The notes under the pieces are model-generated. The model was not told where the DNA came from. It saw only the letters and a program-made list of their open reading frames with translations, and searched no databases. Below, piece after piece: positions 15,170 to 34,900 of a stretch of DNA of 45,809 bases (positions within the stretch are counted from its first letter, which is position 1; every line of letters starts with the position of its first letter). The stretch comes from a phage, in the NCBI GenBank assembly GCA_024854585.1, contig GCA_024854585.1_4323.1, one strand, 5' to 3'. The position numbers were made by a program, and so were the translations under genes.

Positions 15170-15194
15170 ATAGCCTCCATTAGGAGGCTTTTTT
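15170..15194. terminator. Bidirectional terminator hairpin (atagcctccattaggaggctttttt)
   Basis: Between convergent genes 14830..15165 (+) and 15180..15569 (-). Confidence 0.6.
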
Positions 15195-16246: not shown

Positions 16247-16321
16247 ATGATCCACCTTTATGTATTTGTCAATGTTTAAGTTAGTAAAAGAATGATACAT
16301 TATCACCGCTCGGAAAAGAAG

Positions 16322-16350
16322 CATAAAAAAAGGGAGCCAAAAGGCTCCCC
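16322..16350. terminator. Hairpin gggagccaaaaggctccc
   Basis: Stem gggagcc/ggctccc; read from sequence. Confidence 0.4.
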
Positions 16351-16376
16351 GTTCGTAACGCTATGTTTTTTATGCG

Positions 16377-16577
16377 CTAGTCAGCGACAATAAATTCAAC
16401 TAACGAACCATCAATCGGCGCTAAGATTTGCGTCATATCGTCGCCATAAATCTTGTAGTATCCATCGCCCTGGTACTCTGCGCTGTACGGCTGGTTAACT
16501 GTAAATGGAAGCGTCTTGGAGTTGTTCTTGGTGCAATAAATAATTTTAGTCATCTTGTGTTTCCTCGTTTGGTTCAT
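16377..16577 (-). CDS. Small hypothetical protein, paralog of 12324..12677 core (likely start at internal MTKIIYCTK)
   Basis: Shared IYCTK.N...GYYKIY motif. Confidence 0.5.
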   Translation of the reverse strand: MNQTRKHKMTKIIYCTKNNSKTLPFTVNQPYSAEYQGDGYYKIYGDDMTQILAPIDGSLVEFIVAD

Positions 16578-16606
16578 CTCGTTTCGATGTGGTGATTATG
16601 CCGCAT

Positions 16607-17143: not shown

Positions 17144-17196
17144 CTCTTTCTCCTCTCGTTTCTATAAAACAATAATAGCCGCTTTCGCGGCTACTG

Positions 17197-17216
17197 TTTT
17201 AACAAAAAGTGCTATT
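17197..17216 (-). promoter_or_regulatory. Variant motif copy (ttttaacaaaaagtgctatt)
   Basis: Upstream of HNH gene; spacer contains hairpin gccgctttcgcggc and TATTAT hexamer. Confidence 0.45.
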
Positions 17217-18345: not shown

Positions 18346-18427
18346 TTATAAGTTCCTTAATTCATTACGATAAAGTATAAGATAGTAAAGCTAAACAGTG
18401 GGACTAATGCTACTAGTATCAGGCTCT

Positions 18428-18685
18428 TCATTCAACTTCTTTCAACCAGTATTCAATCAAATCAGCACTAATTGCTAATTTCTGATCAAGGTCAGTCATA
18501 CAAAGGTTTCCGCATGCTGGCGAATAGTAAATCTGAACCCACTTACCGTCTTTAGTTTTTGCGTTCACATCCACATAATCAGGAGGGAACCAGTCAGAAA
18601 TAGGTATAGCTCTAAACTTTGCACCACTTTTACCATATACTAAATCGTAATGCTCTGGCTGAAAATCTAAACCCAACATAATCAA
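18428..18685 (-). CDS. Hypothetical protein
   Basis: 85 aa ORF, overlaps neighbour by 4 nt. Confidence 0.45.
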   Translation of the reverse strand: MIMLGLDFQPEHYDLVYGKSGAKFRAIPISDWFPPDYVDVNAKTKDGKWVQIYYSPACGNLCMTDLDQKLAISADLIEYWLKEVE

Positions 18686-18930
18686 TCCTTAGGCTTCGTT
18701 ATCTTAAACTTGAATCCCTCAGATTTAAGGAACTCATTAACATCAATTCTGACACCCGGCTTAACTCTTACGTATTTTCTTGGTCGCTCATCCATGTAAG
18801 AGAATTTCCCATTGAACACGACGCTGATATCTTTTATGTCAAAGAAGCGGGATATCTGCTTAATATCATCCTGAATGCCAGCTTCTCCACAATGCGCCCA
18901 TACAGCGTCGCGTCCGGTTTCAACTATCAT
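18682..18930 (-). CDS. Hypothetical protein
   Basis: 82 aa ORF. Confidence 0.45.
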   Translation of the reverse strand: MIVETGRDAVWAHCGEAGIQDDIKQISRFFDIKDISVVFNGKFSYMDERPRKYVRVKPGVRIDVNEFLKSEGFKFKITKPKD

Positions 18931-19051
18931 AAGCCGTATGCCATTTTTATGTACTCTTTAGCAAGCATCCAGCAGTAATTGTCATTATCCCTAACTGCTT
19001 GTTTTGCATAAACCTGCGCGATCTCGAACATCTCTTTATCTACAATTTTCA

Positions 19052-19273
19052 TTATTGAAAATCCTCCGGGCAATCTTTCTTCATTTCTTCGATATCAGAA
19101 ACCATACGGTCACGCCATGTATCAATATCAGTATTCAGGTAGTCTTCTTCAAAGCTCATATCCAGGCAAAATGCTAAGTCCCACGGGTTTTTGTTATATC
19201 CAGATTTCTTTAGCTCCTCAACTGCCATTAACTTAAATACTTCCCATTGGTGCTCAAATTTAAAAATTGCCAT
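19052..19273 (-). CDS. Hypothetical protein
   Basis: 73 aa ORF. Confidence 0.45.
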   Translation of the reverse strand: MAIFKFEHQWEVFKLMAVEELKKSGYNKNPWDLAFCLDMSFEEDYLNTDIDTWRDRMVSDIEEMKKDCPEDFQ

Positions 19274-19467
19274 TATTCTGATACCTCGTCAAATTTTTCG
19301 CCAAATGCGTTTTTAACAGTTTCTAAATCATCTTTGTAAGTTGGGCTAACATCAAATGCGTAACCATCTCCATCGTCAAGAACATAACTATCAGGGGTGA
19401 TTACTAATTCATATTCGTAACCGGTTTTGCGTGATTCGTAGAATTTACCAGTGTAGATAGTAGCCAT
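19273..19467 (-). CDS. Hypothetical protein (track ORF 19273..19515 trimmed to ATG after GAAACGCAGAGAG leader)
   Basis: Motif plus TATTAT hexamer upstream. Confidence 0.45.
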   Translation of the reverse strand: MATIYTGKFYESRKTGYEYELVITPDSYVLDDGDGYAFDVSPTYKDDLETVKNAFGEKFDEVSE

Positions 19468-19529
19468 TTTGTTTATCTCTCTGCGTTTCGTTTCGATGTG
19501 GTGATAATACACCACCTCACCGATTAGTC

Positions 19530-19548
19530 TTTAGCAATTCGTGCTATT
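19530..19548 (-). promoter_or_regulatory. Palindromic promoter/operator motif copy
   Basis: tttagcaattcgtgctatt between 19551..19757 and 19273..19515. Confidence 0.55.
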
Positions 19549-19550
19549 AA

Positions 19551-19757
19551 TTAAAAAGTATTGTTACGAACACCCTTTACTAAAAATTCACAACAACTAC
19601 CAGCTGATAAGTTCCACGAATTCATAATTAATGTATACCTATATGCTGATTGAACAATTATTTCAGATACTCTTCGCCATTTCTTTTTTCCTGTATATCC
19701 ACTATATATATAATCACCAACTCGGATATCGATAGGTTTCAATTTCATTAATTTCAT
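19551..19757 (-). CDS. Hypothetical small basic protein
   Basis: 68 aa; own motif and leader upstream. Confidence 0.45.
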   Translation of the reverse strand: MKLMKLKPIDIRVGDYIYSGYTGKKKWRRVSEIIVQSAYRYTLIMNSWNLSAGSCCEFLVKGVRNNTF

Positions 19758-19820
19758 TTCTTTATCTCTCTATGTGTTTCGTTTCTATGAAGTAACTATA
19801 CAACATCTTTTAAAATCGAG

Positions 19821-19841
19821 TTTAGCAATTCGTGCTATTTA
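19821..19841 (-). promoter_or_regulatory. Palindromic promoter/operator motif copy
   Basis: tttagcaattcgtgctattta overlapping stop of 19835..20254; TATAGT hexamer and GAAACGAAACACATAGAGAG leader follow. Confidence 0.6.
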
Positions 19842-20254
19842 GAAATCATTTCTTTGAATGCTGCCAGAAAACCCTCGCGACCGTAAGCCACAGCGGAGAA
19901 ACCTCCTGATTCCCTTACACTTTTCAGGAATGACTTCTGCTCGTTACTGACTGGGCTGGCCTGTGTTTTTCCAGCTCTCTTTAGCTCTATTGCGCCAAAT
20001 GGATACCTTCCTCGCACGGATTCAGGTATCAAAAACATGCAGTCTGATACGCCCTTGAGCAAACCCTTTGACTGGTCTTTTCTTGCTTGACCAATGGTTT
20101 TCTTACCCTCATTCACACAGTGGAAAAATACCATCTCTGGATAGTTATACTTAACCCAATCAGAGCAAAAGATTTGTTCGTCATCCTCTTTCGGGCATGA
20201 CTTAACTGAACCTGGGTAAAACTCAATGTAATATTCTTTATCTGTTATGTTCAC
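19835..20254 (-). CDS. VRR-NUC-like (PD-(D/E)xK) nuclease
   Basis: 139 aa; ...GVSDCMFLIPE...FGAIELKRAGKTQASPVSNEQKSFLKSVRESGGFSAV matches VRR-NUC D...E.K plus SxxQ pattern. Confidence 0.5.
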   Translation of the reverse strand: MNITDKEYYIEFYPGSVKSCPKEDDEQIFCSDWVKYNYPEMVFFHCVNEGKKTIGQARKDQSKGLLKGVSDCMFLIPESVRGRYPFGAIELKRAGKTQASPVSNEQKSFLKSVRESGGFSAVAYGREGFLAAFKEMISK

Positions 20255-22245
20255 TTCAATTCTCCAAAATTCTTAAACGCGATCACGTCCTTTCCTTTGC
20301 CGTTTTTTCTGTGTGTTACTTGCACTGGCGCACGGAACTTATCTACGTTGGTCATGATCATTCTAGCATTCTTTAATCTTCCAATTCGTGCCGCTTCTGT
20401 TCGATTCTCAATATGAGCTAGGCAGAAGTTTTTCCATAGAACACTGCAAACTCGATGGTCAGACTCAGGGTTAAAGAATTCCCACGCGTTAAACCTCTCT
20501 CCGTTATGTGCCATGATGTTGTATTTAACTACTATTCCTGTTTGATTTTTACTCAATCCAATCTGGAAATCATAAACGCGCAAGTAATCTCCTCGACGAT
20601 ACATCTTACCGGTCAGATTAGCATTCGGGTCTTTAAGCATCTCACCGCACTCTCTGCAAACCTTTGCCGCTATGTCGTTACGAGCGCCACATCCCTTTTT
20701 AATTACCGATTTAGTTTGTGGGTCCGTAATGTCTTCGCAAGTTGTGAACTGAAAGAAGTGATCGCATCTAACACCATCAATCTTATTGCCACAGCGTCGA
20801 GCAAATGGTGAGTTCTCATATCCACATTGCGGGCACTGACGGGCCTCATCACCACCTTTCCTTGAGGACTTGAACTTCTCAGCCTGAATTTCTTCAATTA
20901 TTGGGTCAAAGTAAAGCTCGGCCATATCATCCAGCGCTCCGGCAAAGTCTAATACCAAGTGATCCTCCTTCTTGAACCCCGCATCTATGTGCGCCTTTTT
21001 TAGTTTTCGCATGCCACGACCAAGAAGCTGAATCATCAAAGTCAAACTGCCAATCTTGCGCAGTATAACGCTGGTATCCCACAATGGCTGGTTTACGCCC
21101 GTAGTTAGACAGCCAATCTGGAATATTATTTTGTACTTTCCAGTCTGGCAATCAGCTAGAATCTCTCTGCGCTTCCTCTCTCCCGTGGAGTCTGTGATGA
21201 TGGCGTATGGGTATCCGTCTGGGAGTGCCGCAGCAGCCTCATCACAATGGAGTTTGCCAGCACAGGTGACCAATGCGGCGTTGCGAGTCTCAAGTATTTT
21301 TACAACAAAACCCATTATCCTTTGAGTCATGGATTGGTTGTCGTGAATCTTTGCAGCCATTGCTTCCATTTCTTTTTTGCTAAAGTCTTTAACGCCATCG
21401 CTTCCGTCTGGCGCAAACTCTGCAAGGTCGTAACCCAAATCACCAACCTCTCCGTAAACGGTTGGAACAACGAATCCCAAATCAACAAGGTAATTTGTTG
21501 GTACTTGTATTACCGTTTTGCGCCAGAATCCACGGACATTTTGGTTACTAACGACAATGTGATCGTTGTTACGATATGGGCTACCAGTAAGGCCAAAAAT
21601 CCTAAGCTCGCGACCGTACTTCTCACGACAACGACGTTTCATCTCGGTAATGATTAGCGTGTACTGCGCGCGGCCAGTGCCAAGCAACCCGGTATTAACA
21701 CCATCCTTAAATACCATCTCACCTTTCTTTGTGCTCATTTGCTCAAATGTTTCTTCGTTCTCCTCGGCTTCAACGATATCCATAGCATCAAGCATGTGAC
21801 ACTCATCTATTGCGATAACTGCCGGAACATAGTCACCAAGCCCCTTAAACAAGCCGTTAGCCGCGGTACCTTCACTAGCGACTATGGTTGGGTAGTAAAC
21901 TGATTTAACGTTAAGGCCAGCGCAATAGACGCTGTTACGGATGCCGAAGTTGCGAAGCTCTTCTGAGTTCTGGCTGATTATCTCTGACTGGCGAGAGAGG
22001 ACCATATAAGGAAGACCAAGCTGCTCCATACGCTTTCCAATCATAGCGAGAATAATTGTCTTACCAGCAGACACGGAAAGGTCAGCGATAAATGGGGCCT
22101 CGTACTTTCCAATAGCCTTTCCGATTGCATCGAATGTTACGCACTGGAACTCGTAAGGGGTTATCTCGCCAAACTGATAATCTTTCTGAATCTGCTTGAT
22201 TCTTTCTTTATCGAAGTTTGCAACCAGCTTCTCGATAGGCAACAT
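20251..22245 (-). CDS. SF2 DNA helicase with embedded zinc-ribbon
   Basis: 664 aa; motif I SAGKT, motif II AIDECH (DEAH-like), CPQCG...RRCGNK zinc ribbon. Confidence 0.7.
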   Translation of the reverse strand: MLPIEKLVANFDKERIKQIQKDYQFGEITPYEFQCVTFDAIGKAIGKYEAPFIADLSVSAGKTIILAMIGKRMEQLGLPYMVLSRQSEIISQNSEELRNFGIRNSVYCAGLNVKSVYYPTIVASEGTAANGLFKGLGDYVPAVIAIDECHMLDAMDIVEAEENEETFEQMSTKKGEMVFKDGVNTGLLGTGRAQYTLIITEMKRRCREKYGRELRIFGLTGSPYRNNDHIVVSNQNVRGFWRKTVIQVPTNYLVDLGFVVPTVYGEVGDLGYDLAEFAPDGSDGVKDFSKKEMEAMAAKIHDNQSMTQRIMGFVVKILETRNAALVTCAGKLHCDEAAAALPDGYPYAIITDSTGERKRREILADCQTGKYKIIFQIGCLTTGVNQPLWDTSVILRKIGSLTLMIQLLGRGMRKLKKAHIDAGFKKEDHLVLDFAGALDDMAELYFDPIIEEIQAEKFKSSRKGGDEARQCPQCGYENSPFARRCGNKIDGVRCDHFFQFTTCEDITDPQTKSVIKKGCGARNDIAAKVCRECGEMLKDPNANLTGKMYRRGDYLRVYDFQIGLSKNQTGIVVKYNIMAHNGERFNAWEFFNPESDHRVCSVLWKNFCLAHIENRTEAARIGRLKNARMIMTNVDKFRAPVQVTHRKNGKGKDVIAFKNFGELK

Positions 22246-22315
22246 ATCTAAATTCCTATAAAAATTGTCTTGTAGCGTTTAATTGAGTACAATACTACCA
22301 TCAAATCGGAATGAC

Positions 22316-22335
22316 TTTTAACAAAAAATGCTATT
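22316..22335 (-). promoter_or_regulatory. Variant motif copy (ttttaacaaaaaatgctatt) in divergent region upstream of helicase
   Basis: Read from sequence. Confidence 0.4.
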
Positions 22336-22346
22336 GAGGTGATGAA

Positions 22347-22829
22347 ATGAATGCAGTTGACAAGCGAACCACTAACGGTAATAACGGAACTATCCGCACT
22401 GAAGACAAAAAACAACGTAAACGACCTTCAGGCTACTACGTTTTAAAAGATGAAGTAAGAGCCGGGCTACGCGCGCGGCTTGAGATGCTCCTTGATTTCT
22501 TCGTCACAAAGGCGAATATTGCAAAGCAGTTAAAGGTAACTCCGCAGGCTGTAGAAGAATGGTTTAAGCGTGGTATGATTTCTGCGCGCGGTGCTCAACT
22601 GTCGCACAACTACTACAAACGAAACGGAGAGGGTTTTCGTGCTACATTCTGCCGACCAGACCTGCAATTTGACGGTAACGGCAAGCCACTGACACTCCGG
22701 TGCAAAAAGCGTCACATGCTACGCGTGGTTACTGAGGCTGAGTTAGCCACCAAGCCAGAGTGTCGATCATGGCGCAAGATTAAGGCCGCTAACGAGGCAG
22801 CACGAAAAGCTAAAGAGCAAGGGAAATAG
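22347..22829 (+). CDS. Putative HTH DNA-binding protein
   Basis: 160 aa; KANIAKQLKVTPQAVEEWFKRGMIS resembles Cro/YdaS-type HTH; basic termini. Confidence 0.45.
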   Translation: MNAVDKRTTNGNNGTIRTEDKKQRKRPSGYYVLKDEVRAGLRARLEMLLDFFVTKANIAKQLKVTPQAVEEWFKRGMISARGAQLSHNYYKRNGEGFRATFCRPDLQFDGNGKPLTLRCKKRHMLRVVTEAELATKPECRSWRKIKAANEAARKAKEQGK

Positions 22830-22843
22830 CACGAATTGATAAA
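22824..22843 (+). promoter_or_regulatory. Motif copy in + orientation (aaatagcacgaattgataaa)
   Basis: Contains stop of 22347..22829; 20 nt then TATAGT; GGAGGT RBS before primase ATG. Confidence 0.55.
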
Positions 22844-22894
22844 CAGTGGCGCTATACATTGTGTATAGTGCCTTTATTGTTTATGGAGGTAACT

Positions 22895-23821
22895 ATGAGT
22901 CACCATGATAAGAACGAAGTGATAGCGAAAATGAAGGGAATGTGGGGCGAATTCTACTCATCGCACCTTGGGTGGACAAAGGAGAATCTCAGCAAGAAGC
23001 ATGGATCATGCCCGAATTGCGGAGGTCGTGATAGGTTTCGCTTCACTGATGAGCTAGGGCAAGAAAAAGGAAACGGAGCAGCAATATGTAACCAATGCGG
23101 CAATGATTCGGGTGTTGGTTGGGTTATGAAGTGCTCAGGAATGAGTTATAGCGAAACAATAGATACACTTGGTGATTGGCTGAATATCGTTCCAATAGAG
23201 GTTATATCAAAAGCAAACAAAAGAGCATCAAGAACTTCACCATATAAAATGGGCGCTCAGATTGACCACGAAAGATGCTTAGAGATAATGGAAAGGACGG
23301 AAAGAGTAGCATCAACTCCACTCAGTATATACGAGGGTATCTATAGTGAGTTTGGTTTTGATGTTGGCAGGGCAAAATCAGGCGAACTAATACACGCAGT
23401 GCCTTGTTTTATGGCCTATAGTGATGGTATATCAGAAGAAATGTGCAATGTAATGTTTATCAATGAAGAGGGAGATGTTAGTTATGCTGCAAAAGATTAT
23501 ACTCGCCAGTCTATTGCTGTTATTGGTTCCTTTAAAGATGATGAGTACGCTTATCTGGTCGATAATTTCATTGACGGCTATCGCGTTCACATTGCTACAG
23601 GTAACCGCTGTGTGCTTGTTTGCCACTCCAGTTACAACATGGAAATGGTTGCTTACGCGCTTAGAAACTACAAGTTACGCGTCGCTTGTACTCGCCACGC
23701 TTTTGATTTACTCGCCGTTGCTGACGATCGCGATCTTGATGTGGTAATGCCAAATGATGATAATTTTTTTAAGTCAGGAATAAGAAAACGAATATACAAA
23801 GCAAGTGAATTACTAGACTAA
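22895..23821 (+). CDS. DNA primase-like protein (zinc-binding N-terminus); track ORF starts 22859
   Basis: CPNCGGRDRFRF...CNQCGN zinc ribbon typical of phage primases; adjacent to helicase. Confidence 0.5.
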   Translation: MSHHDKNEVIAKMKGMWGEFYSSHLGWTKENLSKKHGSCPNCGGRDRFRFTDELGQEKGNGAAICNQCGNDSGVGWVMKCSGMSYSETIDTLGDWLNIVPIEVISKANKRASRTSPYKMGAQIDHERCLEIMERTERVASTPLSIYEGIYSEFGFDVGRAKSGELIHAVPCFMAYSDGISEEMCNVMFINEEGDVSYAAKDYTRQSIAVIGSFKDDEYAYLVDNFIDGYRVHIATGNRCVLVCHSSYNMEMVAYALRNYKLRVACTRHAFDLLAVADDRDLDVVMPNDDNFFKSGIRKRIYKASELLD

Positions 23822-23843
23822 CCTCCTTCGGGAGGTTTTTTAT
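23821..23843. terminator. Terminator hairpin acctccttcgggaggtttttt
   Basis: GC stem plus T run after primase. Confidence 0.6.
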
Positions 23844-23866
23844 ACCTGAAAGATGCTACAATCAAA

Positions 23867-23888
23867 CTTAGCAATTCGTGCTATTTTA
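23867..23888 (-). promoter_or_regulatory. Motif copy in minus-gene orientation with no minus-strand gene to drive (module-boundary remnant?)
   Basis: cttagcaattcgtgctatttta sits 20 nt upstream of tailspike ATG. Confidence 0.4.
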
Positions 23889-23907
23889 CAAATGGAGACT
23901 TTACGCA

Positions 23908-26505
23908 ATGGCAATTTATGACTTAGGAACAGCGTCGCTAGCCGCAAATGGCGAGGTGACTGGGGTCGGAACAACATGGAAAGCACCGCTTACACTGATT
24001 CGTGTAGGTGCAACCATTATTTTTAAAACAAGCCCCCTGAAGATTTACACCATCTCAGAAATCATCAGCGATACGCAGATTAATGTTTATAACCCTAATT
24101 CTGAAACTGTTCCTGCAGGAACTGGTTATGCGATCCTTGCTCACGATGGGATTACCGTTCAGGGTTTAGCTCAGAATGTAGCAGAGACTTTGCGTTACTA
24201 CCAGTCTAAGGAGACATCCATCGAAGGATTGCTGCAATTTATTAGTCAAGACACTTTCGACTGGCCTAGATTCGAGCAACTTGCAAATCAATCCACCACT
24301 GGAGCTGCGGAGGCGCTTGCTAGTCAGGTTGCTGCCGCAGAAAGCGCATCAACTGCCGTTGGTGCTAGCAATAATGCACAGAACTCATACAACAGAACCG
24401 TTGCCGCAATAAATGCAGCCGGGAATACCGCCGCAGTGGCTTACTTTGCAGAACACGGTATAGGAAGCACAACAACTCCACTTTTAACATCTCTTGACTG
24501 GCAGACAATGCAATTTTATTCAGGTGGTAGTTACCAGTGCAGAATTGACAAAATGGTTAACATCCCAGCAGACTTAAGCCTAATGTTCCCGGCGACAAAC
24601 ACTACTATTTGTATTGATGTTCTTGCGACGCGCGGTATTAATGGAAGTAACGTAGTAAGAATTTCTCCCTCTACAACCTCAAACGCAGTTTTTAGGGTTG
24701 CGGAAATTACCTTTACTGGAGCTGCTGGTTCTAGGAATTTTTATGTAAGGGAGTTATTGAGTGTGCCTGGTGGAGATGCATCAAGCGGTGGGTCCAGCGC
24801 ATTAAGGGTTAGAGGTTTGCTTGATGTTTACTCGAAGGGCGAAACCTTTCTGAGGTCTTCCAACCTTAGCGACATCCCAAATAAAGAGGCTGCGAGAATT
24901 AATCTTGACGTTTACTCAAAAGCCGATCTTGGAGGAGTGTCTTCACTATCAAAAATAGGTTCGGCAAACTATAGCGACATAAGGGGTTATTCGGGTTCTG
25001 ATTATTCCATTAGTTGTTACGGAAGAGAGACGATCGCAGATAATGCTTTCGGTATATTCCAGAGAGATGATTCAGACACATCTAGCGAGGACAATGATGG
25101 TACCATTCTTGTTGACGCATTGGATAGAAGATGGAAGAGAAGCTACACGGGTCCAGTTGATGCTAGATGGTTTGGAGTGAAAGCTGACGGTGTAAGTGAT
25201 GACACTGCGGCGGCAAACAGAGCTACATCAACGCTTCAGGATGTTTCTTTTCCTCCAGGTGTAATTTTAACTAGCGGGCCAATACTTTTCGGAACTCAAA
25301 ACATAAGAGGGGCATCAACCTACCCAAATTCAAAATACGGAACAATTATACAATGCTCTGGTGATCATTCTGGATTCGAGCACTTCCCTACCGGATATCA
25401 ACCAGGTGGGTCAATAGCTAACTTTTGGATTAACTATCAGTCTAGTAAGCCAACGACAGACAGTGGTTTTAGTCGTGGCATTGATTTTGGAACCAGAGAT
25501 TCTTTAATTGACCCTCTTGCAGGTGGAGTTACAAACTTTAAGGTTGAGAATGTAATAGTAAGAGGTGCCTACTATGGATTCTACGATGTGACGTCAGCTT
25601 ATTTGATGGAGTATGTTAATTGCTGGGCGTGGGATTGCATTCAGGGCTTTAGGAAAGACTACGGGACAACCGTTAAGTACTCATCGTGCTACTCACTTGA
25701 TTGCTATGCGTCATGGGCGCTAAAGTACTGTCACGTAGCTACTTTGGTGAACTGCGCGTACGATGGCAGCTCTAATTTTGGAAACTTAACGCCGTTTATT
25801 GCAACTCAGTGCCCTGGGTTGACGATAACTGGAATGCAGCATGAATCATCAAAGGTTAATATTAATGGCGGATCAGACTTTGTTCTTATTGACTGCAATT
25901 CAGCAAAGATTTCAGGGTTTTCGATACCGTCATGGAGAAACCAAAACCCGCAAGGACAGGAGGCTTATCTTTTTAGATTCACAAACTCAGACGTTGATAT
26001 TTCAGGAGTCAACTTATCTGGTTTTGTTTCTGGTGGAAGTTCTGATGTTATTAGTGATGGAGCAAACTCTTATGTAGTGCTTGCAAATTCAGGGTCAAAT
26101 GTAAGGGTTAGCGCAAGCAACCTGCCTGTAGTCTCTGGATCGCAGTACTCTTACTCGCTCTCTGCATCCGCTGATAGCAGAATAGATTACACAAGTAACT
26201 GTGATGTTGGCGGGCTTGTTAATGGATCTGTTTTCATTAATGGATTCTCACAGCCTTCATATATTGACTACAATGTTACACTTGCAGCTAATGGTGGAAT
26301 GTCATTTCTAGGAACAGTTAGCGTCCCTGGCGTTAAGTATGGTGATTTCATAAACGTGGATGTTAGTTCCGGTCTTAGTGGTATTGATATATTTGCATCC
26401 AGGGCTGGTGGTGGGACTGGTAGTGTTAACGTATTCTTAGTTAATCACAATACATCTCAAGTTAGCGTGTCTGGTCGGGCTGTAATTAGATTCATGAGGC
26501 CATAA
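23908..26505 (+). CDS. Tailspike / receptor-binding protein with probable right-handed beta-helix (pectate-lyase-like) depolymerase domain; track ORF starts 23878
   Basis: WFGVKADGVSDDTAAANRA matches the FGAxGDGxxDDTxAxxxA signature of pectate-lyase-fold tailspikes; Ser/Gly/Asn-rich repeats. Confidence 0.55.
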   Translation: MAIYDLGTASLAANGEVTGVGTTWKAPLTLIRVGATIIFKTSPLKIYTISEIISDTQINVYNPNSETVPAGTGYAILAHDGITVQGLAQNVAETLRYYQSKETSIEGLLQFISQDTFDWPRFEQLANQSTTGAAEALASQVAAAESASTAVGASNNAQNSYNRTVAAINAAGNTAAVAYFAEHGIGSTTTPLLTSLDWQTMQFYSGGSYQCRIDKMVNIPADLSLMFPATNTTICIDVLATRGINGSNVVRISPSTTSNAVFRVAEITFTGAAGSRNFYVRELLSVPGGDASSGGSSALRVRGLLDVYSKGETFLRSSNLSDIPNKEAARINLDVYSKADLGGVSSLSKIGSANYSDIRGYSGSDYSISCYGRETIADNAFGIFQRDDSDTSSEDNDGTILVDALDRRWKRSYTGPVDARWFGVKADGVSDDTAAANRATSTLQDVSFPPGVILTSGPILFGTQNIRGASTYPNSKYGTIIQCSGDHSGFEHFPTGYQPGGSIANFWINYQSSKPTTDSGFSRGIDFGTRDSLIDPLAGGVTNFKVENVIVRGAYYGFYDVTSAYLMEYVNCWAWDCIQGFRKDYGTTVKYSSCYSLDCYASWALKYCHVATLVNCAYDGSSNFGNLTPFIATQCPGLTITGMQHESSKVNINGGSDFVLIDCNSAKISGFSIPSWRNQNPQGQEAYLFRFTNSDVDISGVNLSGFVSGGSSDVISDGANSYVVLANSGSNVRVSASNLPVVSGSQYSYSLSASADSRIDYTSNCDVGGLVNGSVFINGFSQPSYIDYNVTLAANGGMSFLGTVSVPGVKYGDFINVDVSSGLSGIDIFASRAGGGTGSVNVFLVNHNTSQVSVSGRAVIRFMRP

Positions 26506-26526
26506 AAAAGCCCCGAAAGGGGCTTT
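26505..26526. terminator. Bidirectional terminator aaaaagccccgaaaggggcttt
   Basis: Between convergent tailspike (+) and HNH pseudogene (-). Confidence 0.6.
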
Positions 26527-26534
26527 ATCTTTTA

Positions 26535-27020
26535 TCAGAAGTAAAACAGTTCTGCTTGCTTCCTTGCCTCTAATGCGGACCCAAACGTTTCGAATCGTCC
26601 GAGGTGTATTTTTCGACTGTTTACAGTTATGGATGCGTCATATTTTCCTTTATTAAAATGTACGCCTCTGTAACCTGTTTTATTGTTGACTCTTACACCT
26701 AAATTGCGCATGTTTCCTGTTCTGTCGGTTTTACTGAGGTTGCTGTAGGCATTGTTTTCTCTGTTCCTGTCAATATGGTCAATTTCAATATCACCATTCA
26801 AAGAACCTTCAACGAAAGCAACCGCAAGCCTGTGCGCCTGGAATCTATCTCCGTGGATGTTTATGCCTATTTATCCATGCCTAAGCGAACCGGCCCGCGA
26901 ACCCATCTCTACACGCCGAGATGTGGGAAGAATCCAAGAAAAGATTCCTGATTCTTTATTGTATGATAGGTGACGCATTGCTGCGTCAACCATATCTTTT
27001 GTTATTTCTTTGTATTTCAT
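26535..27020 (-). pseudogene. HNH-AP2 homing endonuclease interrupted by in-frame TAA (at 26871..26873)
   Basis: ATG 27020 reads MKYKEIT...GSLRHG then TAA then IGINIHGDRFQAHRLAVAFVEG...DHIDRNRENN...YRGVHFNKGKYDASITVNSRKIHLGRFETFGSALEARKQA in the same frame. Confidence 0.6.
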
Positions 27021-27023
27021 ACG

Positions 27024-27440
27024 TTAAAATGGAATATCCGAATCAAACTGCTGTTGTGGTTGTGGTTGTCTCTGCTGCTGATGTTGCTGTTGTTGTCTTT
27101 GCTGCTGCTGTTGTACACCATCACCACGCTGACTAAACTCAAGTCGAGGGTTATTCATGTTAATCGTTACGTAAGTCTTACCATCTTTATCACGAACATC
27201 AACAGCCAGGCTTTCAGCGCTAACGCTAACAACTTTACCCTCTTTAAATGCATCGTTGTACCAATCTAACATTGACTCTTTCGCGAAGAAGACTGCGCGG
27301 TAGTTACTATACTGAGTTTGCCCATCTTTATCCTTGTATCGCTCACTTAAGTCAACTGCAAACATTTTCCAGCTACCATTAGCATTCTGACCTTCCTTAG
27401 TGAATGGAGCGCGGCGAATCTGACCAGTAATTACGTGCAT
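27024..27440 (-). CDS. ssb: Single-stranded DNA-binding protein
   Basis: 138 aa; OB-fold-like N-terminal region, Gln-rich linker, C-terminal acidic tail ending DSDIPF. Confidence 0.75.
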   Translation of the reverse strand: MHVITGQIRRAPFTKEGQNANGSWKMFAVDLSERYKDKDGQTQYSNYRAVFFAKESMLDWYNDAFKEGKVVSVSAESLAVDVRDKDGKTYVTINMNNPRLEFSQRGDGVQQQQQRQQQQHQQQRQPQPQQQFDSDIPF

Positions 27441-27479: not shown

Positions 27480-28130
27480 TCAGAATGTGTCGATTTGTTG
27501 TGATTCTACTTCAATCTTTTCTTCAGGACTACTTTTTTCTGCGACTCTCTTTGGTGTTGCTGGGTTGAAGCCAGTTGCTGCGTTTGCTTCAATCTCTGCT
27601 TTTCGCTCGATAATATGAGGCTCGAAAACCTTCCATCCTGCCGCATCAAGTGATTGCTTAGCATCCTTCCAAACGTTACGAAGCTCATCGAGCGTATTAC
27701 ACTTCTCAAGTTCTCGCTTAAAGTCTTTGACACCCTTGGCTGCCAGATTGCCATCATCATCTGCCTGGCTAAGGCCTAAGGCTGCTGTGATTCCGTAGCG
27801 ACGAGCGTATGTAAGCGCGGATCCGTAACCTTGAGCATCATTCTTACTGATTGGGACTATCATCAAGAAGCTAACCCACTCTCCAGATTCAGCATGAAAC
27901 AGTTTTGTCTCAACCCTCATACGGTTGGTTTGTTCATCATCAAGCACGCTCTGGAACATAACCAAGCCGCACTCATCTAAGCCTGGCTCAACAGCCGCCA
28001 AAACGTCCTCTAAGGTTGCATACTTATTCTTTAAGTGAGAGTTCTGCTTAGACTTTTCAGCCTTCGCAAATAGCGATTTGGCAGTGTGTAGCGCGTTTAA
28101 AATTGATTTGCATGATTCTGAAATTTGCAT
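27480..28130 (-). CDS. Erf-like ssDNA annealing protein
   Basis: 216 aa; KNKYATLEDVLAAVEPGL and GSALTYARRYGITAALGL...DDDGN patterns reminiscent of the ERF family; sits between exonuclease and SSB. Confidence 0.5.
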   Translation of the reverse strand: MQISESCKSILNALHTAKSLFAKAEKSKQNSHLKNKYATLEDVLAAVEPGLDECGLVMFQSVLDDEQTNRMRVETKLFHAESGEWVSFLMIVPISKNDAQGYGSALTYARRYGITAALGLSQADDDGNLAAKGVKDFKRELEKCNTLDELRNVWKDAKQSLDAAGWKVFEPHIIERKAEIEANAATGFNPATPKRVAEKSSPEEKIEVESQQIDTF

Positions 28131-28185
28131 CTTTAACCTCGTTCGTTGTTGATGTGGTAATCATACCCCACTTTTTGATCTTGTC

Positions 28186-28205
28186 TTTAGCAATTCGTGC
28201 TATAT
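28186..28205 (-). promoter_or_regulatory. Palindromic promoter/operator motif copy
   Basis: tttagcaattcgtgctatat overlapping exonuclease stop; TATGAT hexamer and AACGAACGAGG leader before the Erf-like gene ATG. Confidence 0.55.
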
Positions 28206-29168
28206 TTCGTCTCTATACTTCCTCATATCCCACTCAGGAACATCTAAATCAATCTCTGTTGCGCCCATTGCATAACCTGGCCACACATCATTCTCTTTGC
28301 ACTTTTTGTAAGTGGCAAGCGCCTCTAAATACATCCTGCGACCAACCTTCAGTTGCTCTTCTGTAATGTTGTAAAGCATTGGTAGGTAAGGCTCCTCTTT
28401 CTCGATCGCAAGTAGCCTTACTTTTGTTTTTCTTTTTTCATTAAAAGCCCTAACAAAAACATCGTGCTGTAGCGCCATTTTTGCAAGATAACCATGCTTG
28501 AATGCAAGTCTACCAAACTCATGAGGTGATGCGCTGGATGTCGTCTTAAGGTCGGTAATGCACACAACCCCATCAACAACATCTACGTGGTCAATTCGAA
28601 TCTTCACTCCGACGCCGAGAATCTCACCGAAGATTGATAACTCTTTCTGCGCCGTCTCGCTATTCACGATTGCGCTGTACGCTGGTATATTGCAAAGAAC
28701 TTCTCGCATAGACACAACTTTGTCATAGTCTGCCGCGCTAACTAGCTCCTTACACTCTACAAGCGCTTGCGCGCTCTCCTGCTGCTCAATTAGCCATTTA
28801 ACAGGCCAATCCTCACCAGAACGATACATCATCTCTACTAGCTCGCTATACCCCTTCCCGGACGTGCCGGCTACGCCAACTTTTTTAAGCGCTGCCGATA
28901 ATCCGGCTTGGCTTGTAATTAATCCTTCAATCGCGTCAAGGTCTGTAGCTCGAAGGTATTCTTTATCAAACATGTCACCTTCTAGGATGTACGTGTGACT
29001 CAGCGTTCCAAACTTAAGAGCCTTTCTATCATTATTGCGCTGCTTGAACTTCCACTTTGCTGGTGAGCCCTGAATAATCTCGACAAGTGAGCTACCGGAG
29101 ATGTGTTCAGTTTCAGCGTGGTAAGCCTCGTTGCTTAGCTCCTCTCTCGTAAAAACTTTAAAGCTCAT
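28200..29168 (-). CDS. PD-(D/E)xK recombination exonuclease (YqaJ/Cas4-like)
   Basis: 322 aa; ...IRIDHVDVVDGVVCITDLKTT (D...D.K nuclease core); first gene of recombination module. Confidence 0.5.
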   Translation of the reverse strand: MSFKVFTREELSNEAYHAETEHISGSSLVEIIQGSPAKWKFKQRNNDRKALKFGTLSHTYILEGDMFDKEYLRATDLDAIEGLITSQAGLSAALKKVGVAGTSGKGYSELVEMMYRSGEDWPVKWLIEQQESAQALVECKELVSAADYDKVVSMREVLCNIPAYSAIVNSETAQKELSIFGEILGVGVKIRIDHVDVVDGVVCITDLKTTSSASPHEFGRLAFKHGYLAKMALQHDVFVRAFNEKRKTKVRLLAIEKEEPYLPMLYNITEEQLKVGRRMYLEALATYKKCKENDVWPGYAMGATEIDLDVPEWDMRKYRDEI

Positions 29169-29366: not shown

Positions 29367-29673
29367 TTCTGCATCTCTCTATGGTTGATTGCTTTCGATT
29401 AGTTAACTATATAGTCAGCGCCATAGCCAGTCCAATTGGTTTTGCCAATCGTTGATTTAAGTTTACGTGTGAATGCTTGTAATTCCGTGTAGGCATTGCC
29501 ACTTGTTACGTAAAATGGCATCTCAGCCCAGATATAGCTCAATGTAACCATCGTGTATATCGTGTATACCGTTTCTTGCAGAGGGGTGAATTGGTATAGC
29601 TGCCACGCAATACTGTATAAATCCACATGATATTAAAATTATAACCGGAACACTCTATGGAAGTAGTTACATG

Positions 29674-29736
29674 ATATACACAGTAATATATATAATAATA
29701 ATAATAAGAGTAAAAGGTTGATATATATAGATATTT
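29674..29736 (+). repeat. Copy 2 of about 65-bp AT-rich repeat
   Basis: atatacacagtaatatatataataataataataagagtaaaaggttgatatatatag. Confidence 0.7.
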
Positions 29737-29854
29737 TAATGTAACTAATGCGTAAATTGGCGTAACAGCGCGTATATCATTTTTCGCGGATGAGATTGCA
29801 TACATCGAGTTACATCGGTTACGTGTAACTGTGATTTGTGGTGAATTTGGAGAT

Positions 29855-29980: not shown

Positions 29981-30652
29981 ATGAAAAACATAAGAGAGAC
30001 TAAAATGAACATTGAAGCGTACAAAGAACAGCCAAAAACCATGATGAGCACGAAGGAAATTGCTGAATTGACAGGTAAGCGTCATGATCACGTCGTTCGC
30101 GACACAAAGGAAATGATCAATGAATTGTTACATTATAACTATGCCCCAGATTTGGGTCATGATGATTATCAAGTACTTACGGACAATCGCGGCTATACAT
30201 CTGAGGTTTTACTCAACAAGGAACTCACCGAAACGCTAATCACTGGCTACAGTGTCGTACTTCGCCACAAAGTAATCCGCAGGCTTCATGAGCTTGAGGT
30301 GTTAGTTAAAAAACAAGCAGAAGTGATCAGCCAGATGGTAAGCATTGATGAGTTAAAAGAGGCGCGCATGATGCTTGGTGTGGCTAATGCTCAGAATGCA
30401 CACCTGAGCCAGCGCATTGTTGCAGAGCAAAGAATAAATGAGATTTTACTCATGGATAAGAATACCGATGAAAAACTCGACATGTTGGCTTGTGAGGCTC
30501 GCCAGTGTTGGGTTAGTCGTTCTGATGAGATGGAGGAAAGATTTAAGTATGAATCGCAATGCTTCGCGCTTAAAGAAAAGACGGATGCACTTACCGGATT
30601 AATTGAGAATGAGCTAGGTATTGACATTAAGCTGTTGCTCGAAAAGAAATAG
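29981..30652 (+). CDS. Rha-like phage regulatory protein (possible true start at 30005)
   Basis: N-terminal STKEIAELTGKRHDHVVRD pattern typical of Rha-family regulators; coiled-coil C-terminus. Confidence 0.45.
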   Translation: MKNIRETKMNIEAYKEQPKTMMSTKEIAELTGKRHDHVVRDTKEMINELLHYNYAPDLGHDDYQVLTDNRGYTSEVLLNKELTETLITGYSVVLRHKVIRRLHELEVLVKKQAEVISQMVSIDELKEARMMLGVANAQNAHLSQRIVAEQRINEILLMDKNTDEKLDMLACEARQCWVSRSDEMEERFKYESQCFALKEKTDALTGLIENELGIDIKLLLEKK

Positions 30653-30667
30653 CACTAATTGCTAAAC
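30647..30667 (+). promoter_or_regulatory. Motif copy in + orientation (aaatagcactaattgctaaac)
   Basis: Contains stop of 29981..30652; upstream of lipoprotein gene. Confidence 0.5.
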
Positions 30668-30733
30668 ACTGTTCGCAAGGATGCGATACTATTACCACAT
30701 CGAAACGAAACTTACTTACTAAGGAATACTAAA

Positions 30734-31972: not shown

Positions 31973-34900
31973 TTACCACACTCCAACTACCACTCTTCCT
32001 CCGTTAGGTAAGTTTACAGTGATTCCGTTATTGTTAATCTGAACCGTGTTATTGGTTCCGTTAAATGCGAAGTTACCATTATTGGCATACAGTTTACCCC
32101 TTACAGTGGCGTTACTAAATTCCGCACTTCCTGACTTGTCAATCGCCCATCCTTGAGAGCCAGCAACGTAGTTGTTAGATTGAATCCTGTTACCAATCTT
32201 CGCGTTAGTAATTGAGCCATCGCCAATTACCGCACTTTGGATGATTACGTTTCCGTTCTCGACAACGAAGGGGAGCTGCCACTGACCGGATCCAGAACCA
32301 ATGCCGTTACTGATTGCGAATCTGTTTGCGTCAAAAATAAACTGACTGCGAACGTTTCCACCAGTGCCAACTAGCTCCATACTCATGCCGGATGAGTAAT
32401 TCTGTCCGTTATATTTAAGACCTAAACTGATTCCGTATTGCACGCCAGTAGATGTCGCATTGGAGAATGCGTCTAACTTCTGGTTTATGGCCGCCTCGTT
32501 ATCACCCAATCTTGCTGATAGAGCCGTGTCTGCAGTGGTCCTTGCTTCTGTCTCGGTGGCTAGCGCTGTCTGAACTTCTGTAATCGATGCTACAACTTCA
32601 TCATCTATCTGCGCTTTAAGAGCTGTGAGAGCCTCTACTCGCGCCTGAGTTTCATCAGCTATGAGATTCACTGCCTGAACATATTCAGCCTTACGTTTGC
32701 CGTTCTCCTTGGTCATGCGGCGAACATCGGAATCATTAGCTAATGCATTCTCAAGAATTGACTCTGCCTGATTCTGAATGTCCTGATTCTTTTGAATCGC
32801 ATTCTGCTCTAGGTATTTAAAACCCTCCGAGCCTTCAATATCAACCTTGATATAATCGTTGATGATGTTGGCGTCGTCAGTACTCATACCTCTAGCGAAA
32901 TAAGACCAATCAGAGGTATTGCCGATTCTGTCAATCAATCTTGCGCGATACCAGATGACCTTACCCGGCTGAATTGGCGTGTGCCAGTATTCATAGGCTG
33001 GATAAGGCAGTAACGTCAGCAAACTTGCGTTATCAGGATTGTAAGTACCATCACCATTATCTGGAACCTGCTGAAGTTCAGTGTAAGCAGTATCACCAGA
33101 TCCTTCAGGAAATCCCCATTTAACACGGATGCCAAATACCTCATCAGTTGATGCAGTGATAACTGTAGGCGCAGATGGGCGGCCAATCTTACCAGTTAGC
33201 GATACAGTTACAATATCAGACCAGGCAGACACGTTTTCAGTATCTGATACGCTGCGAACCCTAACGTCATAGATTCCTGCGTAAATACCTTCGATATCAA
33301 CTTCTGTGCTTGCTGTTCTGGGTACGTTAATCCAGTTACCATTTTCTTTTCTCCATTGAACATTGTATGTTTTAGCGTATGGCGCTTTATCCCACCCGAT
33401 AACCATCGTCTCAACTGATAACCCCTGAACAACCTTACTATAACTTGAAACGGTCAGGTTTTCTGGTGGCGACAATCTGTCAGGTTCCACAATTGAAGTC
33501 GGGCGGTCAGCAATGTTAACGCCGTAGTCAATCTCGTCATACTTGTTAGGGTCGTACTCTACCGCAGTAATCGTATACTGGAATGAGTCCTTACCATCAG
33601 TATCTGCTTTTTGAATACCGGTAACAACATACTGCTGAAGTGCCAGATTATCCTTATCAATTGCGAACACAGTATCAGGTTGAGCTACAAAGCTAAAAGC
33701 AGTATTCAGGTTGATGGTTCTACCATCTTCCGAAATGCTGGCAATAGTTCTCGCTTCAGGATTTCCGTCAGGCTTATTCAGAAGAATCCTGTCACCCGGA
33801 GCTGCGTCAACTTTAAATGGGGTAAAAACCTGCAACCCCTGAACTGATTCAATACGACCTGAAAGGTTTAACTGATAGTTGCTCGACCATGCAGCATCAT
33901 TGACCGCAATCACCTCGCCAATCATCGGAATCATGCCCTCCAACCCAGTGGTGAAGCTGATAGTTTCGCTTCTCAGGTTGGTTTTCAGGAGCCATCTGCC
34001 GCGTCTGTTTGCTTCACTTCTCCGCGTACATCCAATTGCCGTAAGGTCGACTGGATTAAATCCGAATCTGCGAGTAGCTTCCAGTTCAAATACCGGCTCA
34101 ACATCCTGCTGATAGTTGTTCTCCACATCATCAAACTGAACGTTTGCCGTGGTGTAAAGGCTTTTATCACTGGCGAAGGTTCGACTGAACAATCCGTTTA
34201 CAACGTTATCATTGGTGAAGATGTAGGATGGATTACGAGGCTTATCAACTACGATACCAATCTTTTCGCCATCATAGAAAGTCAGGCCACGGAAGATCGA
34301 ACAGATATCACGAATTAGCGTGTAAGCCTCAACTTTATTCTGCACAACCATATCGCACAGGTAGCGCGGCTCCACGCCGCCTTTTCCATCTGGAACCATT
34401 TGGTCACAGAATTGCGCAGCTTCGTACAGACCCCACTTATCAATCTCCACACCCAGATCTCTCTGATCAAGACCGTAGCGGCGGTTTGTCACTAAGTCAT
34501 AAAGAACCCACGCAGGGTTATTTGACCATGCCATTTTAAATAGACCATTCCATGTGCCACTATAAGTTCTGCTTTCAGGGTCATAGTTTGTAGGAACCTG
34601 AATCAACTTCCATCGCTTCTTGATAGAGATTGTCGGGATACCGTTAGGAAAAAGGTCAGAGCCAAACTCAACGTAAACAAGAGCTGTAAGCGGATAGCGG
34701 AATTTAGCGTCAATTACTTCCTGATAGGTTGTAATCTGCATCCCGTTAACCAGGGTGCTACTTGTTGAATCTGGTGTAATCTTGCGGATGCGAACCAGTG
34801 CGCTATCAAATTCAGCCGGAAGGTTCACGCGAATGCTTCGGTCGTAACCTGTAGTGGTCTTCCCGTTTGCAACTCCGCGAGTGTATTCCTGATATGATCC

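Follow-up and report, generated by a model that had tools for sequence, protein, structure and literature searches.

In megablast searches the window, i.e. the whole stretch of 45,809 nucleotides analysed here, matches Drexlerviridae, and judged from its sequence it is the genome of a T1-like phage of this family that is Braunvirinae-like. The open frame under study extends in the ORF list from a GTG at 23878 to 26505 on the plus strand. As the ribosome binding site GGAGA precedes the ATG at 23908 and every homologue opens with MAIYDLG, the start of the gene is assigned to this ATG and not to the GTG. The features described in the earlier note, which had reported an 866-aa protein at 23867-26505, are all present in the sequence, with two small corrections: the product has 865 residues, and position 23867 is the first base of a motif copy. 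A primase-like gene (22859-23821, plus strand) lies upstream, and genes for SSB (27024-27440), ERF (27480-28130) and a PDDEXK exonuclease (28200-29168) follow downstream on the minus strand. The tail module (31973-45737) is likewise encoded on the minus strand, so that the gene indeed lies, as had been noted before, between primase and recombination genes and in opposite orientation to the tail module. The features of the locus are compiled in Table 1.

Table 1. Features of the tail-fibre locus (window coordinates; aa, residues of the 865-aa protein).
Feature	Position	Strand	Basis and remarks
Intrinsic terminator	23820..23843	+	Hairpin AACCTCCTTCGGGAGGTT and T-run, 3' of the primase gene; terminator scan
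Extended -10 element TGCTACAAT (TGnTAnAAT)	23854..23862	+	Sigma-70-type; predicted tail-fibre promoter
Reversed motif copy CTTAGCAATTCGTGCTATTT	23867..23886	.	Core dyad TAGCA-ATTCG-TGCTA at 23869-23883, roughly +1 to +15 relative to the predicted start
Ribosome binding site GGAGA	23894..23898	+	9 nt 5' of the ATG; invariant in relatives
Lateral tail fibre/tailspike ORF	23908..26505	+	865 aa and stop codon; ORF list, homologues, PHROG
N-terminal virion anchor (aa 1-~120) and helical bundle (aa ~120-185)	23908..24462	+	phmmer, tblastn
Middle beta-rich domain (aa ~186-304)	24463..24819	+	Identity profile, blastn blocks, AF2 strands
Linker with two LDVYSK repeats	24820..24921	+	aa 305-310 (24820-24837) and aa 333-338 (24904-24921); module junctions
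Receptor-binding/putative depolymerase module (aa 339-865)	24922..26502	+	Predicted right-handed parallel beta-helix, then C-terminal beta domain
Post-stop conserved block	26502..26540	.	Right edge of the variable region; holds the bidirectional terminator hairpin 26507-26526

With respect to transcription, the gene appears to stand alone as an insulated unit with a predicted extended -10 promoter of its own, in which an upstream terminator, this promoter, the ribosome binding site, the ORF and a bidirectional terminator would follow one another. The terminator behind the primase gene (-10.6 kcal/mol, z -2.0) is kept in 8/8 Braunvirinae, equivalent hairpins are found in T1, pSf-2, JohannLBurckhardt, U136B, phiJLA23, GH-K3 and AAS23, and it would shield the tail-fibre gene from upstream transcription. 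The hairpin behind the stop codon was also picked up by the terminator scan and folds with -14.6 kcal/mol on the plus and -13.9 kcal/mol on the minus strand. In the predicted promoter, the -10 hexamer and the TG are invariant in eight Braunvirinae, while the intervening base varies only in BEK6. Across lineages the extended -10 is kept in nine of the ten representatives examined, with TGnTAnnAT at the equivalent place in T1, pSf-2, JohannLBurckhardt, phiJLA23, GH-K3, AAS23 and the metagenomic relative L018, and only a weaker CATAAT at this position in U136B. A two-hexamer promoter scan gave no enrichment over shuffles and did not report the element, which such a scan misses because the element has no -35. 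From the position of the -10, transcription is predicted to start at about 23869-23870, i.e. at the first bases of the reversed dyad.

Both position and homology identify the ORF as an ordinary lateral (side) tail-fibre gene of a T1-like siphophage, in tailspike form and at the place where related coliphages have it, and T1 gp26, rtp50 of Rtp and Depo32 of the Klebsiella phage GH-K3 are its counterparts. It matches PHROG 24092 ("tail fiber protein") with an E-value of 7e-127, and a tblastn search with residues 1-119 retrieved 901 phage records, almost all of them Drexlerviridae. The order helicase/regulator/primase/tail fibre/SSB/Erf is annotated in JeanPiccard, FP, BEK6, OzMSK, Rtp, SU57 and T1 and recurs in L018 with the tail fibre on the matching strand. 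The layout of ES agrees by DNA homology, although its record has no regulator annotation and misnames the neighbours, and GH-K3 retains the neighbourhood of the tail-fibre gene but has the recombination block inverted. T1 gp26, Rtp rtp50, JeanPiccard bas02_0034 and SU57_00050 thus occupy the same slot between primase and SSB/Erf, on the same strand as the window gene. Homologues that match over the full length with 98-68% identity come from contigs of at most ~51 kb, several of which have 44-51 kb. The N-terminal anchor is 86-97% identical to that of Braunvirinae fibres and ~50-55% identical to that of Tunavirinae, Tempevirinae and Webervirus. The remainder is far more variable: the record of Rtp describes a "putative tail fiber with beta-helix fold" whose similarity to T1 gp26 is limited to the N-terminal region, and in the BASEL paper the flanks are syntenic and conservation is confined to the 5' end of the gene (PMC8594841). 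The window shares with these T1-like fibres the upstream terminator, the extended -10 and the conserved-N/variable-C pattern (PMC8594841), whereas the C-terminal 527 residues of its spike constitute a different allele.

The conserved part of the protein, residues 1 to ~185, is the one that is kept across Drexlerviridae. In phmmer, residues 1-168 align with residues 1-165 of Depo32 (7vyv, 7vz3, 7lzj) with an E-value of 6e-34, and the equivalent N-terminal region has been named anchor and helical-bundle domains in the Depo32 paper (PMC10581125); this portion would attach the tailspike to the virion. The middle beta-rich domain is common only to the closest relatives JeanPiccard, FP, BEK6 and ES, and the AF2 model has strands at residues 208-285 with a pLDDT of ~70-80. 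The monomer model is poor at residues 1-190 and 288-351. Depo32 (gp32; 7VYV/7VZ3/7LZJ) is the corresponding Drexlerviridae fibre with a homologous anchor and helical bundle, and its plan of anchor, neck, beta-helix and C-terminal beta domain agrees with that of the window spike (PMC10581125). The beta-helix modules, however, share no more than 12-17% identity, the Depo32 locus differs from the window by its inverted recombination block and the lack of an upstream dyad, and Depo32 is a depolymerase with an experimentally proven target, the Klebsiella K2 capsule.

The C-terminal module contains the cap motif WFGVKADGVSDDTAAANRA at residues 421-439 (nt 25168-25224), which had been taken before as a signature of right-handed beta-helix depolymerases and which lies within the sole Pfam match, PF12708 (Pect-lyase_RHGA_epim, residues 420-478, E 6e-4). 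As this match with 20 bits remains below the cut-off of 27, structure prediction was needed for the beta-helix assignment. The 81%-identical homologue P0002 scores 27.9 bits to PF12708, and PF27114 (Phage_tail_beta) is precomputed for P0001 (98% identical) and P0004. The AF2 model of the central domain and its structural neighbours agree in a beta-helix, and in this respect the prediction bears out the earlier note, which had proposed a right-handed beta-helix tailspike of the depolymerase type. The module would bind a host surface polysaccharide, most likely the O-antigen, and it probably also cleaves it. Could the module instead be an adhesin that binds its glycan receptor without cleavage? 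The sub-threshold PF12708 match would fit such a function, as would the fact that the catalytic residues of the module are not pinpointed. Nevertheless, we regard a purely adhesive role as unlikely, because the close structural neighbours are mostly enzymes (tailspike hydrolases and lyases, epimerases, glucanases), because the body of the helix has eight acidic residues, D486, E491, E547, D560, E568, D619, E646 and D657, none of them assigned as catalytic, that are invariant across 11 homologues of 50-93% identity, and because homologues occupy tailspike positions of P22-like and T7-like phages. At these positions, enzymatic spikes are the rule.

These podoviral homologues also reveal where the module is found outside the T1-like phages. 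The tailspikes of P22-like prophages of Citrobacter freundii (P0029, P0035, P0037) and the fibre of Kayfunavirus KM02 have a receptor module that is homologous end to end, with 50-58% identity over ~520 residues that reach the last residue; the spikes of a Kayfunavirus and of P22-like prophages with Head_binding N-termini are 55-58% identical to the window spike in this module. These spikes belong to podovirus virions, the window spike to a siphovirus, and the adaptors are unrelated: P0029 carries the P22 Head_binding domain PF09008 and KM02 a T7-type gp17 N-terminus. A Pfam search did not find PF09008 in the window protein, which is not a member of the P22 type, because the receptor module alone is common to both. 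These alignments indicate that one receptor module moves between T1-like, T7-like and P22-like phages. Conversely, many C-terminal Pfam types were found behind one N-terminus in the homologue survey. In the phage collection searched, the C-terminal 527 residues have no DNA-level match and a single full-length protein match (57.5%), and copies of the tailspike with 68-98% identity were found only in metagenomic assemblies; the module is a new allele of a known lateral tail-fibre type.

The boundaries of the exchanged segment can be localized by blastn against relatives. On the left side, homology breaks off inside the ORF at window positions 24206, 24368, 24833 and 24920, i.e. 320-1050 nt 3' of the upstream motif, with the nearest breakpoint >300 nt away from it. 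The homology to JeanPiccard stops at 24833, and that to FP, BEK6 and ES at 24920-24922, with full divergence directly thereafter. Two of the left breakpoints fall on the LDVYSK repeats, and each of the stretches that encode them is a ~20-nt DNA microhomology CTTGATGTTTACTCAAA. The right boundary is the stop codon (26502), as homology returns at 26502-26504 in six of seven relatives with 94-100% identity; BEK6 gave no separate blastn match for this short post-stop block. In L018, the homology of the receptor module begins at 24808 and amounts to 72% DNA identity, while the primase gene has no DNA match and SSB/Erf match over only 138 nt. We conclude that host specificity is switched by homologous or microhomology recombination within the ORF. 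The left junction falls in the conserved stretches that encode the linker, or else closer to the 5' end, at about residue 100 or 154, and the right junction at the stop codon/terminator.

Such an intragenic exchange is to be distinguished from an arrival of the complete gene as a cassette. The earlier note had supposed that the tailspike gene came in by recombination at motif copies, with an orphan copy at its 5' edge; on this reading the whole gene would be a recent acquisition. Several features invite this thought: gene and motif copy have opposite orientations, terminators flank the gene, its direction of transcription is opposite to that of the tail module, relatives differ strongly in the receptor part, and a second mosaic junction, in the 5' region of the primase gene, does begin beside another motif copy, at 22827-22841. 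But the gene has an unchanged position and strand in T1, Rtp and the further relatives that were compared, the upstream region with terminator, extended -10, reversed motif, ribosome binding site and ATG is 94% conserved in eight relatives that have different spikes, 4/4 left breakpoints lie in the ORF and not at the motif, and the 3' boundary lacks a motif copy. On these grounds a cassette insertion is extremely improbable, and the alignments speak against a recombination scar in the upstream motif. The comparison of anchor and flanks with relatives thus gave a divided result for the cassette idea, as flanks and N-terminal anchor are conserved but variability of the receptor module is abundant.

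If it is not a scar, what is the reversed motif? The sequence TTTAGCAATTCGTGCTATTT forms a genuine repeat family in the window, as its core TAGCA-N5-TGCTA has 21 matches at no more than one mismatch versus 1.8 expected, and none of 100 shuffles reaches 21. Comparison of genomes shows the motif to be a dyad of 15 bp that occurs family-wide. In four genomes from four lineages, 64 copies have a recognisable -10, and in 51 of them this -10 lies exactly 22 nt from the dyad. The dyad is in this way centred at about -42 in some 15-20 other promoters of each genome. Activator sites of the class II type have this position: the site of lambda cI at OR2/PRM is centred at -42, and those of Mu Mor and C at -43.5. 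Like these, the dyad has 15 bp with half-sites 10 bp apart, is centred at about -42 and accompanies promoters with poor -35 elements, and by analogy the one window copy that overlaps the predicted transcription start resembles start-site operators. In contrast to the lambda and Mu operators, to which the dyad has no sequence similarity, its binding protein is only a candidate. A full-text literature search for the motif sequence yielded unrelated primers only, although the Rtp or T1 genome paper may possibly describe it; it is not a topic of the KanT1 and AHP24 papers, and a literature search on T1-like transcription gave nothing useful.

As stated in the earlier note, the copy in front of the tail-fibre gene is reversed, that is, it has the orientation that elsewhere precedes minus-strand genes. 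It could hence be imagined to fire leftward, for an antisense RNA to the primase 3' end or a replication-priming transcript, and the window does have a TATAAA 24 nt from the dyad. At canonical dyad promoters, TAnnnT follows 21-23 nt downstream and then the leader CATCGAAACGA, and the tail-fibre copy does not have this arrangement: no TAnnnT was found at a distance of 17-26 nt from the copies in the window (23883, minus strand), JeanPiccard (28098) and T1 (34903), the TATAAA reads CATAAA in relatives and is absent in T1, the conserved leader TACCCCATCGAAACGA is absent, and the transcript start would fall within the terminator hairpin. As a -10 is missing at the canonical distance and relatives do not have a conserved one either, we rejected the leftward promoter, which we consider highly improbable. 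A second possibility concerns the RNA. If transcription starts where the dyad begins, UAGCA-AUUCG-UGCUA would be the 5' end of the mRNA and could stabilise the transcript or tune its translation as a stem-loop, and in E. coli a protection of mRNAs by hairpins at the 5' end is known, e.g. from the ompA 5' UTR. The minimum free energy fold of the 5' UTR (23869-23925) does not use this hairpin, however, and with a z-score of +0.58 and 144 of 200 shuffles equally stable it is no better than shuffled sequences, which led us to reject an RNA role as very unlikely. Moreover, at the other sites the dyad precedes the -10 and is not part of the transcripts that these promoters give, which points to a recognition at the DNA level.

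The tail-fibre dyad has the same orientation and position in Braunvirinae, Tunavirus and Tempevirinae, i.e. in three subfamilies with diverged flanks, and it always follows the extended -10 after 6-14 nt. Could it still be a neutral relic, or a site that is bound without consequence? The Braunvirinae are little informative in this regard, since their intergenic region is conserved throughout, and phiJLA23, GH-K3 and AAS23 have the extended -10 without the dyad; an operator would therefore have to be dispensable in some lineages. Against a lack of function stand the constant orientation and spacing, as well as the persistence of the dyad, identical or as a recognised variant of its class, in T1, pSf-2, JohannLBurckhardt, U136B and L018, where the neighbouring intergenic bases differ, and we give a functionless site a low probability. 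We infer that the tail-fibre dyad probably is an operator, at which a dyad-binding factor would restrain or time the transcription of a structural gene that is stranded in the replication region.

The gp23-like HTH regulator, whose gene occupies 22347-22829, is a candidate for this factor. It is the product of a family core gene that was found in 826 records, with one weak match outside Drexlerviridae, and as it is confined to this family, co-occurrence of regulator and dyad does not discriminate. Its HTH matches are weak (P22_Cro, E 1e-3; RacR, E 0.012; BldC-like, E 0.9). Tentatively, the regulator might use the dyad as operator, activating the ~15-20 promoters from -42 and repressing or time-gating two targets close to a start site, the tail-fibre gene and the gene of the regulator itself, an assignment that is possible but rather doubtful. 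Such a circuit was not found described for the T1-like family in the literature searched. An activator of most promoters that represses a structural gene would need an extra explanation for the eventual production of the fibre.

Taken together, we are fairly confident of a T1-like lateral tailspike that changes its receptor module by intragenic exchange, and of an upstream dyad that is probably an operator and not a scar. For the T1-like coliphages this adds a new receptor-module allele, the practical value of which is modest, and it connects siphovirus, T7-like and P22-like phages through a single spike module. For engineering the host range of Drexlerviridae chassis, the precise swap points could serve as a guide, namely the microhomologies that encode LDVYSK on the left and the stop codon/terminator on the right. 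Transcription in the T1 family is poorly understood, and the regular layout of a dyad with the -10 at 22 nt, together with the copy at a start site, provides a directly testable model of its control. If the regulator circuit is true, it would explain how a late structural gene that is stranded in the T1-like replication module is controlled.

One long open reading frame occupies the plus strand of the region, open from a GTG at 23878, and its start is the ATG at 23908, which is preceded at a distance of 9 nt by a GGAGA ribosome-binding site and opens the N-terminus MAIYDLG found in all homologues. The earlier note had described a beta-helix tailspike encoded against the strand of the tail module, between primase and recombination genes, with a reverse-oriented motif copy at its 5' boundary. 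This observation is confirmed, as signature, strand, neighbours and motif orientation are all as described; the gene is there, only that its product has 865 instead of 866 residues and that the start coordinate given was that of the motif. The signature WFGVKADGVSDDTAAANRA (aa 421-439) lies inside the sole Pfam match of the protein, a sub-threshold one to the pectate-lyase-like family PF12708 (E 6e-4, 20 bits vs a cut-off of 27).

Features of the region, left breakpoints of homology in the fibre gene, and dyad promoters
Feature	Position	Strand or remark
HTH regulator	22347-22829	same strand as fibre gene, upstream
Zinc-ribbon primase	22859-23821	same strand as fibre gene, upstream
SSB, ERF-family annealing protein, PDDEXK exonuclease		opposite strand, downstream of fibre gene
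Tail module	31973-45737	minus strand
Left breakpoint, Rtp and SU57	24206	
Left breakpoint, OzMSK	24368	
Left breakpoint, JeanPiccard	24833	
Left breakpoint, FP, BEK6 and ES	24920	
Dyad promoters (about 17 sites), examples	3364-3425, 7390-7451, 9836-9897, 19486-19547	
Dyad promoters, further examples	28142-28203, 11588-11640, 30648-30710	

The terminator of the tail fibre and the SSB gene are separated by an insertion: precisely between the two sits a gene for an HNH homing endonuclease (26541-27023, minus strand; about 165 codons). It has one in-frame stop (…SLRHG*IGIN…), is missing at this site from all seven relatives compared, and shares about 80% identity with copies in GenBank entries that are labelled 'Campylobacter phage' and resemble T1-like coliphages. 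The SSB itself has a Gln-rich tract QQQQQRQQQQHQQQRQPQPQQQ just before its acidic C-terminal tail (27030-27110, minus strand).

The megablast matches of the window are T1-like siphophages (Drexlerviridae, mostly Braunvirinae), and the closest relatives, vB_EcoS_FP, JeanPiccard and BEK6, have flanks of about 88-90% identity. The order helicase (-), regulator (+), primase (+), tail fibre (+), SSB (-), Erf (-) is annotated in JeanPiccard, FP, BEK6, OzMSK, Rtp, SU57 and T1; it recurs from helicase to Erf on a 51-kb metagenomic contig, and in the poorly annotated ES record it agrees by DNA homology. In case of the Klebsiella phage GH-K3 (Webervirus), the exonuclease/Erf/SSB block is inverted in comparison to the E. 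coli T1-like phages (13834-20847 of its sequence), and the tail fibre, which still adjoins SSB, follows it on the same strand. The Rtp record of 2006 already lists rtp50 as a putative tail fiber with beta-helix fold, similar to T1 gp26 in the N-terminal region only, and the BASEL paper describes conserved and syntenic flanks of a fibre gene that has only its 5' end in common (PMC8594841). For the family, the position and strand of the gene, its fold class and its variability in the manner of a cassette are therefore already known: the tailspike reading is right, but not new for Drexlerviridae.

The sites of module exchange were mapped by comparing the window with seven relatives by blastn. Homology on the left covers the primase gene and the intergenic stretch without a break and reaches into the tail-fibre ORF, and on the right it is back at 26502-26504, i.e. 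at the stop codon and bidirectional terminator, in six of the seven. Of the left breakpoints, the two distal ones fall on the two copies of LDVYSK (aa 305-310 and 333-338): JeanPiccard diverges immediately after the first, and FP, BEK6 and ES immediately after the second, where each goes on in a sequence of its own. At the DNA level, these junctions are near-identical stretches of about 20 nt (CTTGATGTTTACTCAAA), followed by abrupt divergence. The metagenomic relative L018 has 72% DNA identity in the receptor module from 24808 onward, while its backbone shows no DNA match in the primase and only one of 138 nt in the SSB/Erf region; the module must hence have changed backbone. The earlier note had set conserved flanks without cassette variability against its own model; the flanks are indeed conserved, the variability is nonetheless real, bounded on the left within the gene and on the right by the stop codon. 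We are highly confident of this reading as a tailspike with intragenic exchange.

Residues 1-168 match by sequence (E 6e-34) the anchor and helical-bundle region, as named in PMC10581125, of Depo32, the GH-K3 counterpart whose N-terminal region is homologous, and in other relatives the same N-terminus fronts C-termini of several different Pfam types. In the phage collection, nothing matches the receptor module (aa 339-865) at the DNA level, and its sole full-length protein relative is the C-terminus of the tail fibre of KM02 (T7-like Kayfunavirus; 57.5%). In the large protein database, Citrobacter freundii prophage tailspikes, which carry a P22 head-binding domain and resemble the window fibre in the receptor module, are 50-55% identical through the last residue. 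Eight acidic residues of the helix body are invariant in 11 homologues (50-93% identity), which is compatible with an enzyme but no proof, and the beta-helix may also bind only, without cleavage.

The repeat TTTAGCAATTCGTGCTATTT has the dyad core TAGCA-N5-TGCTA, for which 21 matches with at most one mismatch compare with 1.8 expected. It can be read as AAATAGCAC-N3-TTGnTAAA, followed by a TAnnnT -10 box (TAtAgT); then come the leader TACCCCATCGAAACGA, which is conserved, and a Shine-Dalgarno sequence. Among the copies with a recognisable -10 box in the window, JeanPiccard, T1 and GH-K3, i.e. in four Drexlerviridae lineages, 51 of 64 have exactly 22 nt between dyad and -10 box; this is a family-wide promoter architecture. 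With this spacing the dyad is centred at about -42 and the -35 that remains is weak; the position of the dyad suggests a class of promoters that depend on an activator. No description of this architecture was found in the literature searched, the T1 and Rtp genome papers lying outside the search. A one-mismatch dyad CAGCACTAATTGCTA in plus orientation among minus-strand genes (18463-18477) lacks a -10 box at the canonical spacing and is a second orphan, or else matches by chance. Separately, an AT-rich element about 75 nt long (…ATAATAATAATAA-AGTAAAAGGTTGATATATATAG-TATT…) occurs twice, 18.4 kb apart (11229-11312 and 29668-29743), both times where transcription switches from minus to plus; these elements may be origin or early-promoter regions.

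The copy at the tail-fibre gene (23867-23886) has minus orientation and no -10 box 17-26 nt away in its own direction, as is also the case for the corresponding dyads of JeanPiccard and T1; in neither direction, then, does it form a canonical promoter. A leftward promoter would have neither a conserved -10 nor a leader, and folding gives no support for an RNA hairpin (z +0.58). Over the 130 nt that precede the ATG, eight Braunvirinae with different spikes show 94% conservation; this stretch holds the terminator, TGCTACAAT, the RBS and, with its orientation unchanged, the dyad. The proposed arrival of the gene as a cassette by recombination at the motif is thus refuted by this motif-bearing region together with the synteny and the intragenic breakpoints. 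The only coincidence of a motif copy with a homology break lies in the primase gene, whose 5' third (22821-23167) has DNA matches in FP and OzMSK and none in JeanPiccard, BEK6, Rtp and SU57, and whose mosaic junction begins right at the copy 22827-22841.

In distant phages the intergenic sequence has diverged, yet the terminator and an extended -10 (TGnTAnnAT) are kept, with the dyad 6-14 nt further on in unchanged orientation. It is kept in T1, pSf-2, L018, JohannLBurckhardt and U136B (the last with a weaker -10), the latter two having the TAACAAAAnnTGCTA class variant that is used at canonical promoters as well. As TACAAT lies at 23857-23862 and the predicted start is 23869-23870, the dyad spans about +1 to +15. 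The tail-fibre gene looks like a monocistronic unit, insulated and served by an extended -10 promoter of its own that needs no activator. In the most likely mechanism, the dyad would be an operator through which the factor recognising all dyad promoters restrains or times this structural gene, which lies within the replication region; this operator reading we put forward tentatively and consider somewhat doubtful. A dyad that is only a relic without function would hardly explain its conservation across diverged flanks, but keeps some probability because three lineages, phiJLA23, GH-K3 and AAS23, retain the extended -10 and manage without it.

For the operator reading, the candidate factor would be the gp23-like HTH protein encoded two genes upstream, a Drexlerviridae core gene with 826 records. 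Its gene has a near-consensus sigma-70 promoter (TTGTCT-17-TACAAT, within 22265-22346), and between this promoter and the ATG comes the dyad that belongs to the divergent helicase promoter (22319-22333), a layout shared by the GH-K3 regulator gene, which suggests that the regulator may control its own expression.

The novelty is small and consists of a receptor-module allele for which the other sources seen are metagenomes alone and, with 50-58% identity, T7-like and P22-like phages, of exact swap junctions at LDVYSK-coding microhomologies, and of a testable hypothesis on the start-site dyad at the tail-fibre promoter.
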